Positions 3,409 through 44,428 of a stretch of 64,000 nt of DNA are shown piece by piece. A program made the translations under genes and the position numbers. Numbering within the stretch: the first letter of the stretch is position 1; every line of letters starts with the position of its first letter. The stretch is from Escherichia phage vB_EcoP_EP32B. The stretch lies in the sequence record OR544955; one strand, given 5' to 3'. The notes below the pieces were generated by a model. That model was given only the letters and a program-made list of their open reading frames with translations. It ran no database searches and was not told the origin of the DNA.

Positions 3409-4029
3409 ATGTTTAAACGTAAATCTACTGCTGACCTCGCTGCTCAAATGGCTAAACTGAACGGTAACAAAGGTTTCTCTTCAGAAGATAAAGGCGAATG
3501 GAAGCTGAAACTCGACGCATCCGGTAATGGTCAAGCGGTAATTCGTTTCCTGCCGGCAAAAACAGATGACGCCATCTACACACGGCGATTATGACTCTTG
3601 TCCTGTATGTCAGTACATTAGTAAAAATGACCTGTACAATACCAACAAAAATGAATATTCTCAACTGAAACGTAAAACTTCTTATTGGGCTAATATTCTG
3701 GTTGTTAAAGACCCTCAAGCTCCAGATAACGAAGGTAAAGTATTCAAATACCGTTTTGGTAAAAAGATTTGGGACAAAATCAATGCAATGATTGCAGTTG
3801 ATACTGAAATGGGTGAAACTCCTGTTGATGTAACTTGGTTCTTGGTACTGCCGCTCTGGGCGGTGCAGCAGCTGCCGCAGCTTCTGTTGCAGATAAAGTT
3901 GCTTCTGACCTTGACGATTTTGATAAAGACATGGAAGCCTTTAGTTCTGCAAAAACTGAAGATGACTTCATGAGCTCTACCTCATCCTCTGATGATGGCG
4001 ACCTCGATGACCTGTTAGCTGGTCTATAA
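3409..4029 (+). pseudogene. 32: ssDNA-binding protein gene 32, interrupted by two frame-breaking lesions (about 621 bp versus ~906 bp expected)
   Basis: Frame 1 [36 protein letters not shown]...AVIRFLP matches T4 gp32 N-terminus then stops; frame 2 resumes at ...[21 protein letters not shown]...GETPVDVT (zinc-binding region); frame 1 again supplies the acidic C-terminus ...[12 protein letters not shown]. About 20 residues before THGDYD and most of the core after DVT are absent. Confidence 0.8.
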
Positions 4030-4598: not shown

Positions 4599-6196
<1,598 letters not shown>

Positions 6197-8847: not shown

Positions 8848-9944
8848 ATGAGTACAGTTTTTAACACACAACAAGTCGATGTTTTGAATGAACCGATGTT
8901 CTTTGGTTCTGGTCTTGGTATTGCGCGTTATGATATTCAACGACATAAAGTTTTTGAAGAACTTATAGAAAAATCCTTGTCGTTTTTTTGGCGCCCAGAA
9001 GAGGTAAACTTGATGTTGGACTCTGCGCAGTTCAATAAGCTTCCTCAGTTCCAACAAGACATCTTTACAAACAATCTTAAGTATCAATCATTATTAGATT
9101 CTATCCAAGGCAGGGCCCCATCTGCGGTACTTATGGCACTGATTTCTGACCCTTCATTAGATACGTGGGTTGCAACATGGACATTCAGTGAAACTATTCA
9201 CTCTCGTTCGTATACTCATATTATGCGAAATCTTTATACCGATCCATCCAAAGTATTTGATGAGATTGTATTAGACGAAGCAATCATGAAACGAGCTGAA
9301 TCAATAGGTAAATATTACGATGATGTTCTAGACAAGACTCGTCGTTGGGAAAATGCAAGCGTGATTTAATGAAGTCTCTTTATCTCTGTTTGCATGTAAT
9401 TAACGCCTTGGAAGCTATTCGTTTTTACGTATCATTTGCATGTACTTTCAACTTCCATAAAAACATGGAAATTATGGAAGGTAATGCAAAGATTATGAAG
9501 TTCATTGCTCGTGACGAACAACTCCACCTCAAGGGTACTCAGTACATTATCCGTCAACTTCAATCTGGTACTGATGGTGATGAGTGGGTTCAAATTGCTA
9601 AAGAATGTGAACAGGAAGCAGTTGACATTTTTATGGAAGTAAATAGACAAGAGAAGGAATGGGCTGCACATCTCTTTAAAGACGGTACATGCCCGGGTAT
9701 CAATACACAGAGTATGTGTGCTTTTGTTGATTACTTGACTGTGTCTCGTATGAAACAGTGTGGTTTGCCATGTCCAATTACTGATGCTCCGACCAAGCAT
9801 CCGTATCCTTGGATTCGTGAATATCTGAACTCTGATTTAGTTCAAGCAGCTCCTCAGGAAGTTGAAATCAGTTCTTATCTTGTCGCACAAATTGATAATG
9901 ATGTAGACCAAAATGTAATCAATTCATACAAAAAATATTTCTAA
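8848..9944 (+). pseudogene. nrdB: Ribonucleotide reductase small subunit gene, intronless, frame-shifted near 9345-9370
   Basis: ORF 8848..9369 (173 aa, ...TWTFSETIHSRSYTHI...) and ORF 9345..9944 (LYLCLHVINALEAIRFYVSFAC...EGNAKIMKFIARDEQLHL...) together cover R2 iron-centre motifs but lie in different frames. Confidence 0.85.
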
Positions 9945-15455: not shown

Positions 15456-16448
15456 ATGTTACCTGTCGTCGGAAAACTTATTTCTCCAAAAGAACTGGCT
15501 GAGATTATTCCTTTGTCGGAAGCTTACGCATCACAAGTGGCTTCTCATCGCGAACAAGTTAATTCGATTATGAACGGTGAAGACCCACGCAAACTTATTG
15601 TTGTAGGTCCTTGTTCAATTCATGACCCTATTGCTGCTGTTGAATACGGCAAACGTCTGGCTGAACTTCAAACTCGTCTTCCTAATGTTCTGTTAGTGAT
15701 GCGCGTTTATTTTGAAAAGCCTCGAACTACCGTAGGTTGGAAAGGTCTTGTAAATGATCCATATCTTGACGGAAGTTTTGATATGAACCACGGTCTTATA
15801 GTTGCACGAACATTGTGTCGTAAACTTCTACGTATGGGACTTCCATTAGCAACTGAAGTATTAGACCCATTCACGATTAAGTATCTTTCTGGTATTTTCT
15901 CATGGGTTGCTATTGGCGCCCGTACGACTGAAAGTCAGACACATCGTGAAATTGCTTCAGGTCTACCGATGTGCGTAGGCTTCAAGAACGCAACCAATGG
16001 TTCTATTAAAGTAGCTACAGACGCGATGTATAGTGCCGCCTGGCCTCATCGGTATATGGGTATGGACGTCGATGGTACTGTAGGCATTGTTGAAGCTGAA
16101 GGTAATCAGAATACGCATATCGTATTGCGTGGCGGGACCAACGGCCCGAACTATCATTCTTCTGATATTCAAGAAGCTTCTAACAAAGCAAGGGCAGTAG
16201 GTCTGAATCATTATGTAATGGTTGACTGTAGCCATGCAAACGCTGATGGACATTATAGCAATCAAATTGGTATTGGTAAAAATTTAGCAGCTAATGATTT
16301 GGTCAAAGGAATTATGATAGAATCATTCCTACATGAAGGAAATCAAAAAATTTCTGATAATATGTCCTATGGCGTTTCCATTACCGATGCGTGCATCAGT
16401 TGGGAACAAACTAAAGAGCTGTTAACTTATATTAATAAGGTTCAATAA
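15456..16448 (+). CDS. 3-deoxy-D-arabino-heptulosonate-7-phosphate (DAHP) synthase, class I (AroF/AroG-like)
   Basis: 330 aa with motifs VVGPCSIHD, MRVYFEKPRTTVGWKG, AIGARTTESQTHRE, PMCVGFKN, MVDCSHAN, IMIESFLHEGNQ, YGVSITDACISWE; colinear with E. coli AroF/AroG along the whole length. Confidence 0.9.
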   Translation: MLPVVGKLISPKELAEIIPLSEAYASQVASHREQVNSIMNGEDPRKLIVVGPCSIHDPIAAVEYGKRLAELQTRLPNVLLVMRVYFEKPRTTVGWKGLVNDPYLDGSFDMNHGLIVARTLCRKLLRMGLPLATEVLDPFTIKYLSGIFSWVAIGARTTESQTHREIASGLPMCVGFKNATNGSIKVATDAMYSAAWPHRYMGMDVDGTVGIVEAEGNQNTHIVLRGGTNGPNYHSSDIQEASNKARAVGLNHYVMVDCSHANADGHYSNQIGIGKNLAANDLVKGIMIESFLHEGNQKISDNMSYGVSITDACISWEQTKELLTYINKVQ

Positions 16449-17029
16449 TGAAAGCTAGCACATACCTTCAGATTGCATATCTGATTTCTCAAGAATCAAA
16501 ATGTTGTTCATGGAAAGTTGGCGCAGTCATTGAAAAAGATGGGCGCATTATCTCTACTGGGTATAACGGTAGCCCGGCCGGTGGTGTTAACTGTTGTGAA
16601 CATGCATCTGAAAATGGTTGGTTGAAGAATAAACCAATCCCAGTCATCGTTGCTGGGCATAAAGAAGGCACTACAGCATTTGGACGGGCCGATAATTTTG
16701 TTTTGGCTAAAGAACATCGGGCTGCTCATAGTGCATGGTCTGCCAATAACGAAATCCATGCGGAACTGAATGCAATTTTGTTTGCAGCTCGTAAAGGTAA
16801 TTCTATTGAAGGTGCTACGTTGTATACGACACTTTCTCCATGTCCTGATTGCACTAAAGCTATTACACAGTCAGGTATTAAAAAGGTTGTATATGCAGAA
16901 TTATATGACCGATCTCCTGAAAATTGGGCAGACATTCTTAAACAAGCTGGTATTGAAGTAATTCAGTACTCTCGTAATAATCTTCGTTCTCTGAATTGGG
17001 AACAAATCCGAAACTTTTGTGGTGAATAA
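16448..17029 (+). CDS. cd: dCMP deaminase
   Basis: 193 aa (same as T4 Cd); zinc-ligand motifs HAELNAI and SPCPDC; start overlaps DAHP synthase stop. Confidence 0.9.
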   Translation: MKASTYLQIAYLISQESKCCSWKVGAVIEKDGRIISTGYNGSPAGGVNCCEHASENGWLKNKPIPVIVAGHKEGTTAFGRADNFVLAKEHRAAHSAWSANNEIHAELNAILFAARKGNSIEGATLYTTLSPCPDCTKAITQSGIKKVVYAELYDRSPENWADILKQAGIEVIQYSRNNLRSLNWEQIRNFCGE

Positions 17030-17327
17030 TATGATTTTAACTGAACAAGAAACTATGGTTCTTCGTGAACGTATTAAAACTATTCTGTCTGTAGGCGTTC
17101 ATTGTGTTGTATTTGAAAAGGCTAACGGTGATGTTCGTACGATGTTTGCCTCCCGTGATGAACTTGAAGTCAAATACGAAAATAACAATCCGGCAACAGA
17201 AGTTCGTTATGAACCTCGTGAATCAGTTCGAGCATTCGATACCAAGTTAGGCCAGTGGCGTTCTTTCCGCCTTGATAAAGTAATTTCGGTTGATGGTACT
17301 CCGGTAGAACGTTTGCTTCTTATGTAA
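17019..17327 (+). CDS. Hypothetical protein (31.x position)
   Basis: 102-aa ORF between cd and gene 31. Confidence 0.45.
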   Translation: MVNNMILTEQETMVLRERIKTILSVGVHCVVFEKANGDVRTMFASRDELEVKYENNNPATEVRYEPRESVRAFDTKLGQWRSFRLDKVISVDGTPVERLLLM

Positions 17328-21574: not shown

Positions 21575-21844
21575 ATGTTTGTAGTTCATGATATTACAGA
21601 TGGCAAAAATACCACACGTGACTACGGTCATGTTAACATGTTCTTTCGAGACTGGCCATTGTTTCGTTCAGTAAAAGACGCAGAAATATTTAAAGAGTGT
21701 GTTGAACAAGGGTTCATCTACATTTCAGAATACTATGTTGAAGGTCTCGGTAAATGGATTACCACTTATCAGAAAACGCTGAAATCGCTTCTAGATGAAG
21801 TGGCTTATAATAGAACCGTAACCAAAATCGAGGACATCAAATGA
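21575..21844 (+). CDS. Hypothetical protein (30.1 position)
   Basis: 89-aa ORF immediately upstream of ligase gene. Confidence 0.45.
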   Translation: MFVVHDITDGKNTTRDYGHVNMFFRDWPLFRSVKDAEIFKECVEQGFIYISEYYVEGLGKWITTYQKTLKSLLDEVAYNRTVTKIEDIK

Positions 21845-23261
21845 TTTTAGATATTTTAAACCAAATAGCTGCGATCGGTTCTACTAAAACAAAACAGGAA
21901 ATCCTTAAGAAAAATAAGGACAACAAATTACTTGAACGTGTATATCGTTTAACGTATGCACGTGGCATTCAGTATTATATTAAGAAATGGCCAGGACCAG
22001 GTGAAAGGTCTCAAGCGTATGGCCTTCTTGAATTAGATGACATGTTGGATTTTATTGAGTTCACATTGGCCACTCGTAAACTCACTGGTAATGCAGCAAT
22101 TAAAGAGCTCATGGGTTATATCGCTCTATCGCGAATAAGGTATGGCCTGGACTTATTCAATTGCAACCGCAGATGTTAGCATCTGCATATGACGAGAAAT
22201 TGATTACTAAAAATATTAAATGGCCTGCATTTGCTCAATTAAAGGCAGATGGTGCTCGTTGTTTCGCTGAAGTTCGTGATGACGGTGTTCAATTCTTTTC
22301 TCGTGCTGGTAATGAATACCATGGTCTTACCCTATTAGCAGATGAACTAATGGAAATGACTAAAGAAGCCCGTGAAAGACACCCTAATGGGGTTTTAATC
22401 GACGGTGAATTGGTTTATCATTCATTTGATATTAAAAAGGCTGTGAGCTCAGGAAATGACCTGTCGTTCTTATTTGGCGATAATGAAGAATCTGAAGAAG
22501 TACAAGTTGCAGACCGTAGTACTTCAAATGGTTTAGCAAATAAATCTCTTCAAGGGACTATTTCTCCTAAAGAAGCGGAAGGTATGGTTCTTCAAGCCTG
22601 GGACTATGTTCCTTTAGATGAAGTCTATTCTAACGGCAAAATTAAAGGTCAGAAATACGATGTTCGTTTTGCTGCTCTTGAAAATATGGCTGAAGGCTTT
22701 AAACGAATTGAACCTATCGAAAACCAGTTAGTTCGTAATCTTGATGAAGCTAAAGTGGTTTATAAAAAATATGTTGACCAAGGTCTTGAAGGTATTATCC
22801 TTAAAAACCGTGATTCATACTGGGAAAACAAACGCTCTAAGAACCTAATTAAATTTAAAGAAGTTATTGATATCGCTTTAGAAGTTGTAGGATACTATGA
22901 ACACTCTAAAGACCCTAACAAATTAGGTGGTGTCGAACTCGTATCACGTTGTCGTCGTATTACAACCGATTGTGGTTCAGGGTTTAAAGATACAACTCAT
23001 AAAACAGTTGACGGTGTAAAGGTTCTTATTCCTTTAGATGAGCGTCATGATTTAGACCGTGAACGATTAATGGCTGAAGCTCGTGAAGGTAAATTGATTG
23101 GACGTATTGCTGATTGCGAATGTAATGGTTGGGTTCATTCTAAAGGCCGTGAAGGTACTGTAGGTATTTTCCTTCCAATTATTAAAGGGTTCCGTTTTGA
23201 TAAAACAGAAGCGGATTCGTTTGAAGACGTATTTGGACCGTGGTCCCAGACAGGTTTATAA
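21841..23261 (+). pseudogene. 30: ATP-dependent DNA ligase gene 30, broken by a frameshifting deletion near 22115-22130
   Basis: ORF 21841..22179 = MILDILNQIAAIGSTKTKQEILKKNKDNKLLERVYRLTYARGIQYYIKKWP...LTGNAAIKELMGYI then out of frame; ORF 22161..23261 carries ...KVWPGLI...QPQMLASAYDEK...LKADGARCFAEV (adenylation KxDG) to the C-terminus. About 25 residues between GYI and ANKVWPG are missing. Confidence 0.85.
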
Positions 23262-39690: not shown

Positions 39691-39717
39691 AAAAGGGACC
39701 GTAAGGTCCCTTTTTTT
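39691..39717. terminator. Bidirectional terminator between rnlB and gene 24
   Basis: AAAA-GGGACC-GTAA-GGTCCC-TTTTTTT between convergent genes; overlaps gene 24 stop. Confidence 0.8.
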
Positions 39718-40999
39718 ATTCATCAATGATAATTTTTGGTAGCTTAACACCGAGTAAAACAGACAAGTCTGAACGTCCTGCCATTTTATCCATGTCCCCG
39801 CCATCAATTATTCTCGCTTCTTTTTCATCTTTTGCTACTGTGTAAGGATTTGCTGATAAGGCATATCTAACCAATAATCCGATAGACGGTTGCAAGCTTT
39901 CTGGATCAACTACAACTTTAAATGCACCGACATGTTCCGGGTCATCTAAATCCACTCCTTCAGTATATGGAGCATAAAAGATGGACCCTACAATTTCTTT
40001 TTCGCCGAGATTTTCTACAACACCCACAATAACATAATCTAACGGGCTGTTGGTATCGCAGTAAAGAGGTAATCCATTTGCCAAGAATCCATAAGCATTT
40101 TGTGAAAGATACTTGTCATCTTCTGGCTTATGTTTTAACCAACCGGAAGCAGCAAGAATAGCAGCTGCACGAGCTGAGGCTACACAAAACGTTGCAGTAT
40201 AAGTTGTCTCTTTTTGGATGTGTGATACCATTTCACACACCATTCGATATAACGAACGACCTGCTTCTGGAGCGGATGCATAGCTCAAGTCAATAAATCC
40301 GGTGTCAGTAATTCCAGTAACTTTATAACGTTTCGATACAGTAATTAAAGACTGAAGAATATCTTTATTAATTTCATCTGCCATTTCAGTAGCAAGCAAA
40401 TCTTCTAAGAAGTTAGGGGCATCAAATCCATTCGCTTCCAAATCTTGCGCTAATTCAACCGTGAGGCCAGTTTTAAGTTTACGAGATTTGACTGAAGTTT
40501 GCCATTTATTAATCTGGAATCTTGCATCAGAAATTTCGCTATCAGAGCTTTCAAATTTGCTTGTTACCGCTGCATCTGAAAATAACCGTACCTTTAAATG
40601 AACGACCGCAATCTGAAGAGCTAATTCTAGATCACTTTCTTGAATATCTGCAAATGGTGTATCTTCTAACACTTTATAGACGATATTATTATATTTGAAA
40701 AAATCGCCTTTATTTAGTGTGACTTTTGATTCTTCTGTGAGTTCGGTAATTTTTTCTCGGTCTACATATCCAACTTCACCAGCATAAGTAGCACCGGTTT
40801 TAAATGTGAATTCGTTATCTGGGTTAAGATATTTGATACCATAAAAAGCAGCAACAGGTTGATTAGTTCTTTGTGTTGCTACAATGTCAGAATATATTAA
40901 TTTAGTCGTAGCGCGAGTCAAAGCAACGAGATTTGGGCGACCAATTGAGTTGCTAGTAGACGTTGTAGATTCACGCAATAATTTTTGGATTTTACTCAT
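39716..40999 (-). CDS. 24: Capsid vertex protein gp24
   Basis: 427 aa, identical to T4 gp24 length; late promoter 28 nt upstream; paralogous to gp23. Confidence 0.88.
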   Translation of the reverse strand: MSKIQKLLRESTTSTSNSIGRPNLVALTRATTKLIYSDIVATQRTNQPVAAFYGIKYLNPDNEFTFKTGATYAGEVGYVDREKITELTEESKVTLNKGDFFKYNNIVYKVLEDTPFADIQESDLELALQIAVVHLKVRLFSDAAVTSKFESSDSEISDARFQINKWQTSVKSRKLKTGLTVELAQDLEANGFDAPNFLEDLLATEMADEINKDILQSLITVSKRYKVTGITDTGFIDLSYASAPEAGRSLYRMVCEMVSHIQKETTYTATFCVASARAAAILAASGWLKHKPEDDKYLSQNAYGFLANGLPLYCDTNSPLDYVIVGVVENLGEKEIVGSIFYAPYTEGVDLDDPEHVGAFKVVVDPESLQPSIGLLVRYALSANPYTVAKDEKEARIIDGGDMDKMAGRSDLSVLLGVKLPKIIIDE

Positions 41000-41100: not shown

Positions 41101-41370
41101 ATGACTAAAGCACGTTTCTTACGAGATACTTTAAAAGTTCTGGAAGCTGAAGCAGTTAAGTTAGTAGAAAAATATGGTGCAAAAGTTAATGGTAATGCCT
41201 TCAACAAAGTATGGATGAAAGTTGATTCTGAAGCTCGAGCTAAAGGTTATTGGGCCACTGATAAACTTGCATCATTCAAAAACAAAGACGGTTCTCCAGC
41301 ATATATCCAAGAAGGTATGCCTAATTGGCAAAATATTTTGAAAACTTACATCAAAATTGCACAGAAATAA
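41101..41370 (+). CDS. Hypothetical protein on the early-sense strand between genes 24 and 23
   Basis: 89-aa ORF with its own early-type promoter (41041-41070) and RBS GGAG. Confidence 0.5.
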   Translation: MTKARFLRDTLKVLEAEAVKLVEKYGAKVNGNAFNKVWMKVDSEARAKGYWATDKLASFKNKDGSPAYIQEGMPNWQNILKTYIKIAQK

Positions 41371-41422: not shown

Positions 41423-42951
41423 TTAGATGCCTTTTACATATACACGGCGGAAGTAAGCGTTCTTACCAAGGCTGTTCAGGATAGACGGCATACCGGACTG
41501 GATGCGAGCACCTGGAGCCTGCAGGGAACTTTCAGCAAACGGGTTAACACCGATACCGTAACGAGTTTTGAAGCCCATTACCGGCTGGAAGTTCTTAGGA
41601 TCAGAACCACGCAGTGGGGTAAGTGCAACGTAAGGAGCATAGTAAATACCTGCATCCATTTCGTTAGCGCCTTTGTAACCAACGGTGAAGTAATCCTGTT
41701 TAGCATACTGGTCGATGTATACGCGGTATTTACCACCAAGTACACCGGCAAATACAGACTTAGTAGTGTCGGTATTAAAACCAGAAGCCAGACCCTGTGC
41801 AGCGTAAGAAATACCAGTATCAACTGAAGCCAGTACGTTAACTACGTTACGGGAAGCGATAATGAAGTTACCTTCACCACGACCGGTTTGACGAGCAATT
41901 TCAACTGCTTCTTTATCAATCTGGAACAACAGAGATTTAAAGCTTTCACCGGCCCAACGAGCACCACGGATATCAATCGGGTCCTGGAAGTCAAATACAC
42001 CAGCTTTAGAACCCGGAGTCAGGGTCATACCGGATTTACCAACCTGTGCTGAGTAGTTAATCCAATCAACAACTTCACGGTTGATTTCTAGCATAATTTC
42101 TGTAGCCAGAATACCACTCAGTTCAGCATCAGCATCCATACCGTGTACTGCACGGAGGTCTTGTGCTAATTCGATAGAGTAAGCAGCTTTCAGCTGGCGA
42201 GATTTAGCTTCGATAACTTGTTTATCGATACGGAAGCCCATTTCATTCCATGGGTTATCGGTAGAACCGTTGAAACCTTCCTGAAGTTCAGCGATAGAAG
42301 TAGCCATACCTTCAGCGATTTCTACCAGTGCACCAGCTTCCATTTGTTTCTTAACTTCGGCATCTAATTTAGCAGCATCGGTCGCATCGATTGTTACTTG
42401 AACAGAAGCTTGCAGATATACAGTACCAGTTTCCTGGAAGAAGTGAGTGCCAGAGCTGGGAATTTCTTAGCAGCACCCTGACCAGAGAACATCGCATCTG
42501 GGGCATACATCGGATGGAAAGCTTCTTTAGCGCCAGCAGCGATAGGGTCTTTACCATATACTGCACGGAGAGCAAATACCTGACCGGTCGGGCTGTTCAT
42601 AGGCTGAACACCACAAATATCAAAAGCGATCAGATTAGGAATAGCACGACGAACCATACCCATAACTGCTGGCCCAATTTGGGTTACTGCACCAGAGGTT
42701 TGACCTGCTGCGATGTTCTGAGCATTATAACCATGGTCACCACCAATTTCAGCTTCGGTCAAGAAAGAACCAAATGCCTGAGCGATTTTCTCGTCTTTAT
42801 ATTCAGGGGATACTTCGAAATCTTTTTCCTGGTTTTCGAAGATTTTAGCGATAATAGCCTGCTTGCTATTAGCGATTTCCGGCAGGCCTTCACCTTCCAG
42901 CAGTTCTTTCCATTTGTCTACGAGCTGAGCTTTAGTTTTGATAGTAGTCAT
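41423..42951 (-). pseudogene. 23: Major capsid protein gene 23, broken by a frameshifting deletion near 42447
   Basis: ORF 42394..42951 = MTTIKTKAQLVDKWKELLEGEGLPEIANSKQAIIAKIFENQEK...AAKKFPALA then out of frame; ORF 41423..42343 continues MEAGALVEIAEGMATSIAELQEGF...YFRRVYVKGI. Both match T4 gp23 nearly residue for residue; about 12 residues after FPALA are missing. Confidence 0.9.
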
Positions 42952-42968: not shown

Positions 42969-43781
42969 TTAGAAACGAGATGCGACTTTCGCATATAAAC
43001 TTACATTAGAATTCTGTTCTACCTGAGTTGTGGTAGTGTCAACTGCTTCGGCAACAAAATTAAGACCGGCAGCGTCATTGTCAACTGTATTTATACTTTC
43101 GGTAATAGCGGCTTCTTCTTTAGTAGAACCTTTAACCATTTCTACAATAGCAGTTAACTTAGTACCAAATGCGTCAGAATAATCCATACCTTCAACCAGG
43201 CCAATAACTTTTTCTTTCTGAGATTCAGTCAGGTCTTTTACGCTTTCATTAATAGCGGTTTCACGCTGAACGTAATTGATATATGCATCACGTTTGGTAA
43301 CTTCTTCGAACAAACGAGCGGTTTCTTCTTTATGTTCGGCCAGCTCTTCTTCCATTTCTGCTACAACATCTACAGATTCTTCTGGAACAACAACGTTATG
43401 TTCAACAAACAGTTCTTTCAGACCACCAAGCATGGATTCGAACAAATCAGCTTTAATGCCTTTATCAACTGCGATTTGGTTTTCTGCGAGCCATTCTTTT
43501 GCAAGATGGTCTAGGAATTTAGAAGCTTGTTCAGCCAATTTTTTATCAGCTTTCTCTTCAGCATCTTCTTTAGCCTTTTCAACTTCTTCTTCGGCCTTTT
43601 CGGCGATGGCTTTGATATGAGATTCAGCCAGTTTGACTGCTTCCTGCTTAACGGTGGCTTCGAATACAGTGCTGAAATTAGCTTTAACGTCCGGAGACAG
43701 TTCTACTGATTCGAAAACACTATTAAGAGCAACTGAAGTCTCGATGTTCTGAGCTTCTTTCAAAAGTTGTTCTTTGATCAT
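42969..43781 (-). CDS. 22: Prohead core scaffold protein gp22
   Basis: 270 aa (T4 269); Glu/Ala/Lys-rich coiled-coil composition; late promoter upstream. Confidence 0.85.
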   Translation of the reverse strand: MIKEQLLKEAQNIETSVALNSVFESVELSPDVKANFSTVFEATVKQEAVKLAESHIKAIAEKAEEEVEKAKEDAEEKADKKLAEQASKFLDHLAKEWLAENQIAVDKGIKADLFESMLGGLKELFVEHNVVVPEESVDVVAEMEEELAEHKEETARLFEEVTKRDAYINYVQRETAINESVKDLTESQKEKVIGLVEGMDYSDAFGTKLTAIVEMVKGSTKEEAAITESINTVDNDAAGLNFVAEAVDTTTTQVEQNSNVSLYAKVASRF

Positions 43782-43811
43782 TTTAGTGTCCTGTGGTTTA
43801 GATTACATTAT

Positions 43812-43819
43812 TATTTATA
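43812..43819 (-). promoter_or_regulatory. Late promoter for gene 22
   Basis: Minus-strand TATAAATA overlapping the 3' end of gene 21, ~31 nt upstream of gene 22. Confidence 0.65.
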
Positions 43820-44428
43820 ATGCTTTTAAACTCTCTGCGAGAGCTTTAAATGCTTCATCAGCACTGTTTTTGGTGATTTCCACCGAATTTTCTGATTCTG
43901 ATATTTGTTTAGGAGTAACCCAAGCATCTGGAGCAGAAGGTCCCCACACGGCATCTACGCCGACGGTTAATTTAAATCCTTCGTTCACGATACGGTACCC
44001 TTTATTGGTGTCGGTTAAAGAACCAAGACCACGAGAGGAAACACCTGGAATCCAACCAGCTCGTATATTAGCAGCTAATTTATCGCCGGGACCATGGTCG
44101 CCTTCAATAATTCTAGCGCGTCCATATACATCGTTTCCTTTCCACCACATATCTTCAATAATGATAGCGGCTTGCATAGGGTCAACATTTGCGCGAGGTG
44201 GATGATTTAATTCTCCAAGGGCTTGTTTGGTTGCGCTTTTTCCAAAACGCGTTTAGGATATAAACGTTTATTTCGGTTAACAACCTCTGCCTGAAGAAAA
44301 ATACCTTCTATATAAAGCCCTGGTTTTAAGCCAGAATCTTTTCCATCATGAGATTCCAACATTGGAACGCCATCAATAATCTCACCGGGTTGACCCCAAG
44401 TTTCAATAAGTAACTCGGGTTTATTCAT
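43815..44428 (-). pseudogene. 21: Prohead protease gene 21, broken by a frameshifting deletion near 44230-44236
   Basis: ORF 44207..44428 = [31 protein letters not shown]...RLYPKRVLEKA then out of frame; ORF 43815..44177 = MQAAIIIEDMWWKGNDVYGRARIIEGDHGPGDKLAANIRAGWIPGVSSRGLGS... Correct frame resumes at ...TKQALGELNHPPRANVDPMQA; about 10 residues missing. Confidence 0.85.

Follow-up and report, generated by a model that had tools for sequence, protein, structure and literature searches.

A frame-broken major capsid gene in a Mosigvirus genome record as a probable drop-out of a reference-guided consensus

Does the gene for the major capsid protein of a T-even phage lie split across two reading frames because the phage is built that way, or because its sequence record is? 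The question is raised by gene 23 in the 64-kb stretch of phage DNA analysed here (the window), in which a single uninterrupted frame of ~520 codons, as expected of a functional capsid protein, is absent from the gene as written. The initial annotation had placed a break in the gp23 frame at about 42447. The break is indeed there, and base-level alignment against E. coli O157 typing phage 3 (TP3; KP869101 / NC_041863), the comparison genome used throughout for losses and substitutions, puts the junction at 42448/42449, so that the earlier position was off by one. At this junction 34 nt are missing. The absent block, TGCTAGCACACAAACCACAGTAGGTGATATCTAT on the TP3 coding strand (TP3 43735-43768), comprises the last base of the Ala168 codon followed by the 11 codons ASTQTTVGDIY, and the protein is thereby deprived of residues A169-Y179 in TP3 numbering, or 168-178 in T4 numbering. 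The annotated loss of about 12 codons and 1 nt was thus correct in its single nucleotide and is revised in its codon count to 11. The flanks of the junction, as read, are CCTGGAAGAAGTGAGT / GCCAGAGCTGGGAATT.

The coding content on either side of the junction is otherwise that of a regular gp23. The N-terminal ORF runs from 42951 to 42394 and encodes 185 aa. Its in-frame part, which aligns with TP3 43769-44271, ends ...GQGAAKKFPALA; the frame then shifts at the junction, and 17 out-of-frame residues (LTSSRKLVLYICKLLFK) lead to a stop 17 codons on. Read in the correct gp23 frame, the DNA of this out-of-frame extension encodes THFFQETGTVYLQASVQV. The rest of the protein (THFFQETGTVYLQ... to ...RRVYVKGI and stop) sits in another frame, from 42448 to 41423, which starts THFFQETGTVYLQASVQVTIDATDAAKLDAEVKKQMEAGALVEIAEG... 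and is open as far as the natural stop (Table 1). Both pieces match the Pfam profile Gp23 (PF07068, cut-off 24.4 bits): the N-terminal piece over profile positions 1-64 (E = 5.8e-19, 69.2 bits) and the C-terminal piece over positions 86-375 (E = 7.7e-99, 332 bits), with positions 65-85 covered by neither. The neighbourhood of head genes 21-22-23-24 is likewise kept, gp22 (42969-43781) and gp24 (39716-40999) both being encoded on the minus strand, and the gene order 20-67-68-21-22-23-24 matches that of RB69 and T4 in a window that is colinear with the TP3 and RB69 annotations. On sequence and synteny, gene 23 is assigned to the T4-type major capsid protein family as an ordinary member. Between genes 24 and 23, on the opposite (plus) strand, lies a conserved ORF of 89 aa (41101-41370), which the TP3 annotation calls hypothetical and for which relatives have no recorded Pfam hit.

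Table 1. Coordinates of gene 23, its parts, and the other features affected by block losses in the window (a slash separates the two bases that flank a junction)
Feature	Position	Strand	Description
Gene 23, whole	41423-42951	-	Head-gene cluster, T-even phage
Gene 23, N-terminal part	42449..42951	-	Codons 1-167 and first two bases of codon 168, correct frame
Gene 23, junction	42448..42449	.	34 nt missing relative to relatives; no microhomology at ends
Gene 23, out-of-frame read-through	42394..42448	-	A LTSSRKLVLYICKLLFK, then TAA
Gene 23, C-terminal part	41423..42448	-	T180 to I520 and stop (TP3 numbering), -1 relative to N-terminal part
Gene 32 (ssDNA-binding protein)	3409-4029	+	Losses of 68 nt at 3572/3573 and 214 nt at 3837/3838
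Small ORFs upstream of frd	4761/4762		321-nt loss
td	5353-6196	+	17-nt loss near 5866, frameshifted
nrdB	8848-9944	+	79-nt net loss near 9357, frameshifted
pseT.3	12128/12129		58-nt loss
rIII 3' end	17951/17952		247-nt loss
30.4	20197/20198		34-nt loss
Gene 30 (DNA ligase)	21841-23261	+	73-nt loss at 22124/22125, frameshifted
alt.1	23289/23290		102-nt loss, in frame
alt	~25448		15-nt loss, in frame
uvsY.-1	33840/33841		50-nt loss
Gene 21 (prohead protease)	43815-44428	-	Net 28-nt loss at ~44236-44250; ORFs of 73 and 120 aa
Gene 14	53224/53225		36-nt loss, in frame

Although the two halves had been described as near-identical to T4 gp23, a likeness that is sound in substance, the phage itself is a Mosigvirus of the RB69/TP3 group and not T4. 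Among public records, E. coli O157 typing phages 3, 6 and 13 come nearest to this RB69-group genome, at 99.3% identity in gene 23 and 98.4% across 24 kb. Colinearity with TP3 extends over all 64 kb, and base 1 of the window is also base 1 of TP3. This shared start is an arbitrary one, which precedes rnh and seems to fall within the region of tail-fibre gene 34; judged from the two sequences, the coincidence implies a source record either constructed on TP3 or rotated to it.

None of the relatives shares the lesion. The same gene 23 flanks are separated by a 34-nt spacer in 14 of the 14 relatives compared, and in every one of the 10 contigs (NCBI, ENA, JGI and Logan) with an identical gp22, an intact 522-aa gp23 adjoins it. 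gp21 is likewise intact in all 10 of these contigs, each of which is only ~98% identical to the window. In the phage collection, an 80-nt query spanning the junction gave only two-piece matches whose pieces lie 34 nt further apart, and exact scans with a junction 32-mer found no match in IMG/VR viral contigs, species-representative genomes or JGI metagenomes. An exact look-up of the truncated gp23 product returned no record, and E. coli genomes and plasmids held no match that would suggest an integrated remnant. The contigs with identical gp22 vary in other ways. Their Hoc-like decoration protein (L007-L016, ~15800-17220) has 283, 376 or 471-472 aa, length differences whose sequences suggest a variable number of Ig-like domains. 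In L008 and L014 (12457-13386), ORFs of 219 and 88 aa between genes 23 and 24 replace the 89-aa ORF, and in L016 (17947-18678) inh and uvsW are separated by a GIY-YIG-like ORF; these optional ORFs are probably mobile homing-endonuclease cassettes.

The gene 23 break had also been taken as a single lesion, and in this respect the initial annotation does not hold: it is 1 of 15 block losses within the window, and the indels of block size are entirely one-sided. Relative to TP3, the blocks measure 15, 17, 28, 34, 34, 36, 50, 58, 68, 73, 78, 102, 214, 247 and 321 nt, and there are no gains longer than 1 nt, whereas in the same comparison the related genomes LNA2 and UGJNEcP1 show balanced gains and losses. 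Eight of the blocks fall in the stretch covered by LNA2, UGJNEcP1 and RB69 and are present in all three, their loss being private to the window. Only about one block in three has a length divisible by three. The genes broken by the losses are 32 (twice), td, nrdB, pseT.3, 30.4, 30 (ligase), uvsY.-1, 21 and 23; the 3' end of rIII is gone, as is the greater part of two small ORFs, and alt.1, alt and gene 14 are shorter but stay in frame. Gene 32 is out of frame between its two losses, the 214-nt block being a strongly divergent mosaic in LNA2 and UGJNEcP1, and the gene 21 lesion lies 1.3 kb from the gene 23 break. The remaining 70 annotated coding sequences are open and have the same length as in TP3.

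Taken literally, the sequence as given does contain a deletion, and a 34-nt deletion in real DNA could in principle have arisen in a defective genome, through a lethal mutation that a stock had recently acquired, or in a decaying phage remnant. Deletions of gene 23 can persist for a time in mixed populations, complemented by wild-type phage. This reading would nonetheless require frame-breaking losses in 32, 30, 21, td, nrdB and other genes on the same molecule. By established T4 genetics, a phage with genes 23, 21 and 32 all frameshifted cannot be viable. Moreover, the ends of the gene 23 gap lack the microhomology that would suggest slippage or recombination, the junction occurs in none of the four collections, and no E. 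coli genome or plasmid matches it. Across the window, the junctions of the block losses are clean and devoid of microhomology, save for an alignment ambiguity of 2-4 nt at two of them, and slippage or recombination between repeats was rejected on this ground.

The sequence between the losses speaks against a real deletion as well, since all other genes are under clear purifying selection. A total of 1,089 substitutions separate the window from TP3; 1,043 are in coding sequences, and 862 of these 1,043 occupy codon position 3. The changed codons comprise 861 synonymous and 154 non-synonymous ones (85% synonymous), and other Mosigviruses (LNA2, UGJNEcP1 or RB69) share 69% of the alleles that differ from TP3. 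Isolated indels of 1-2 nt are all intergenic, and there is neither a nonsense codon nor a 1-nt frameshift within a coding sequence. Because the substitutions, the alleles and the small indels all look natural, the block losses are best read as an overlay on an otherwise functional, selected genome, and not as decay. That all differences stem from synthetic noise or sequencing error was rejected, since the substitutions are overwhelmingly synonymous and common to relatives. Altogether, a deletion in real DNA of any of the three kinds considered is very unlikely.

A split frame could also, conceivably, be reunited during translation. Programmed -1 ribosomal frameshifting or translational bypassing would yield a gp23 minus 11 residues; the two frames overlap by ~70 nt around the junction, such that a -1 shift could join them, and T-even phages offer a precedent in the bypassing of T4 gene 60. 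Yet no in-frame slippery heptamer of the form X_XXY_YYZ occurs anywhere in the N-terminal ORF, an absence on which the recoding reading was rejected. The two-frame arrangement is not conserved either, all 14 relatives encoding the 11 residues in one frame, and the lesion is but one of 15 alike, most of which fall in genes that have no recoding precedent. Finally, the most abundant virion protein would be made to depend on an inefficient event. Recoding of this kind has only a vanishing chance of being the explanation.

What the lost blocks have in common is divergence among the relatives. At the block positions, LNA2 and UGJNEcP1 differ from TP3 by 31% and 37%, respectively, versus 2.7-3.0% genome-wide, and when the same blocks were placed at random, none of 20,000 permutations reached the observed divergence for these two genomes. 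Fourteen of the 15 blocks lie above background divergence. No significant enrichment appears when RB69 is taken by itself (1473 of 20,000 permutations), because RB69 has diverged everywhere. The 58-nt pseT.3 and 15-nt alt blocks show no notable divergence in the three relatives examined. In TP3-relative alignments, several block edges coincide with the first and last mismatch of a divergent patch, as exemplified by the 214-nt block of gene 32, the 321-nt block upstream of frd, and the 50-nt, 102-nt and 36-nt blocks of uvsY.-1, alt.1 and gene 14. As a minor by-product, the positions of the drop-outs show where Mosigvirus genomes are mosaic and hypervariable. The retained sequence presents the complementary picture. 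Against TP3 its substitution count peaks at 7 in any 30 nt and at 9 in any 50 nt, and no 50-nt window attains 10, whereas LNA2 and UGJNEcP1, of similar overall divergence from TP3, have 420-459 50-nt windows that carry 10 or more substitutions, their maxima being 17-21.

This placement is what separates the two technical routes by which the blocks could have gone missing. Some other technical artefact, in which random low-depth gaps left contigs that were then lined up along TP3 and abutted with no N between them, or in which blocks were excised in silico, would equally account for the one-sided losses, for clean junctions lacking microhomology and for the TP3 start coordinate. The block lengths (mean ~92, SD ~93, median 58) are moreover compatible with an exponential distribution of gap lengths. 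Random gaps or excision would not, however, favour divergent patches, as the permutation test shows the losses to do, nor would they strip every high-divergence stretch from the retained sequence. Random coverage gaps are disfavoured by that test, and the whole class of such artefacts is improbable, if less so than a deletion in real DNA. A biological reading would place the 34-nt loss, and possibly the other losses too, in real packaged DNA, as multiply deleted, complemented defective genomes, or would have the split gp23 undergo a recoding that has gone unrecognised. We consider this pair of readings, taken together, extremely unlikely; were the packaged-DNA reading true, deletions would arise at heteroduplex mosaic patches during mixed infection by divergent Mosigviruses.

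The gene 23 block conforms to the pattern, with one discrepancy in its width. Residues 170-174 of gp23 are polymorphic among relatives (STQTT, DTTTV, STQTK or STQTV), and the lost block covers this patch. A second variable patch, which includes a 2-codon indel, follows ~70 nt downstream, within window 42300-42448, and invariant sequence flanks both. The haplotype of the window changes across the junction: in the 150 nt to its left, the window is nearer to LNA2-type genomes (1 mismatch versus 3 to TP3), while in the 150 nt to its right it is identical to TP3 (0 mismatches versus 9-14). Such a switch fits the presence of a non-TP3 allele at the patch. The polymorphic patch, though, accounts for only ~15 of the 34 missing nt, and the 15 nt on one side of it (GTAGGTGATATCTAT) are invariant in all relatives compared. 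With invariant GTAGGTGATATCTAT inside the gap, a pure soft-clip drop-out should be narrower. Either the real allele would differ at GTAGGTGATATCTAT as well, or a depth threshold or the placement of the gap would have widened the drop-out. As to where these patches lie on the capsid, the passages searched in the T4 capsid structure paper PMC9546572 give no gp23 residue boundaries; a rough offset to gp24 would put them close to where the surface insertion domain begins.

Five features converge on a reference-guided consensus on TP3: the shared start, the restriction to losses, their placement on divergent patches, the ceiling on retained divergence and the natural polymorphism in between. Reads of a genuine, functional Mosigvirus would have been mapped, or its contigs aligned, to the TP3 record (KP869101 / NC_041863). 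Where mosaic patches of the real phage are locally very divergent, nothing would have mapped, and the unmapped reference positions would then have been deleted and their flanks joined, with neither N inserted nor a de novo assembly made in their place. Some consensus extractors do delete and join in this manner, for example under the CLC options 'remove regions with low coverage' and 'join after removal'. The polymorphic stretch of gp23 (residues ~169-179) would be one such patch, its removal leaving the 34-nt gap that shifts the frame. The gene 23 break is thus very probably a drop-out of read mapping or of a reference-guided consensus on TP3 with the ends joined, although the specific pipeline step is something that we infer from the sequence. 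That it is a technical artefact of some kind is close to certain. Of the two origins that the initial annotation had left side by side, a very recent or an artefactual lesion, strong support goes to the artefact and none to the recent biological lesion. The failure almost certainly belongs to the record and not to the phage, and is not a real feature; the gene 23 of the real phage is almost certainly intact, with ~520-522 codons and its own allele at the patch. The finding matters chiefly as a quality flag for the record. Taken at face value, the record presents a split capsid gene together with broken gp32, ligase, prohead protease, td and nrdB, and its annotation would suggest pseudogenes or recoding where none exist. 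More broadly, one-sided losses over reference-divergent patches, coupled with a capped local divergence, form a reusable signature by which reference-guided consensus genomes may be recognized in databases.

Comparison with known systems places the locus as follows. With TP3, the window shares 98.4% identity, full colinearity, the first base and, downstream of the junction, a TP3-specific gene 23 variant that is shorter by 2 codons; it is set apart from TP3 by 1089 natural-looking substitutions and by the lack of 15 TP3 blocks. With T4 gp23 (PF07068; structures 6UZC, 7VS5 and 5VF3), the resemblance is that of two halves that are both unmistakably gp23, and the TP3 orthologue aligns end to end with the T4 gp23 PDB chains (E = 0). 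Unlike T4-like gp23, the window lacks residues 169-179 and is frameshifted, a state seen in none of the relatives compared. T4 gene 60 also has an interrupted coding sequence in a T-even phage. There, however, a conserved, inserted gap of 50 nt is equipped with take-off and landing codons, whereas in gene 23 sequence is missing, no recoding signal accompanies it, and the arrangement is unique to this record. The closest likeness is to a reference-guided consensus from which low-coverage regions have been removed and the ends joined: the window shows only losses relative to the reference, situated at divergent patches, along with a capped retained divergence and the start coordinate of the reference. 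It departs from that model in that the gene 23 gap exceeds the polymorphic patch known from relatives, and in that here the consensus procedure is read back from the sequence alone.
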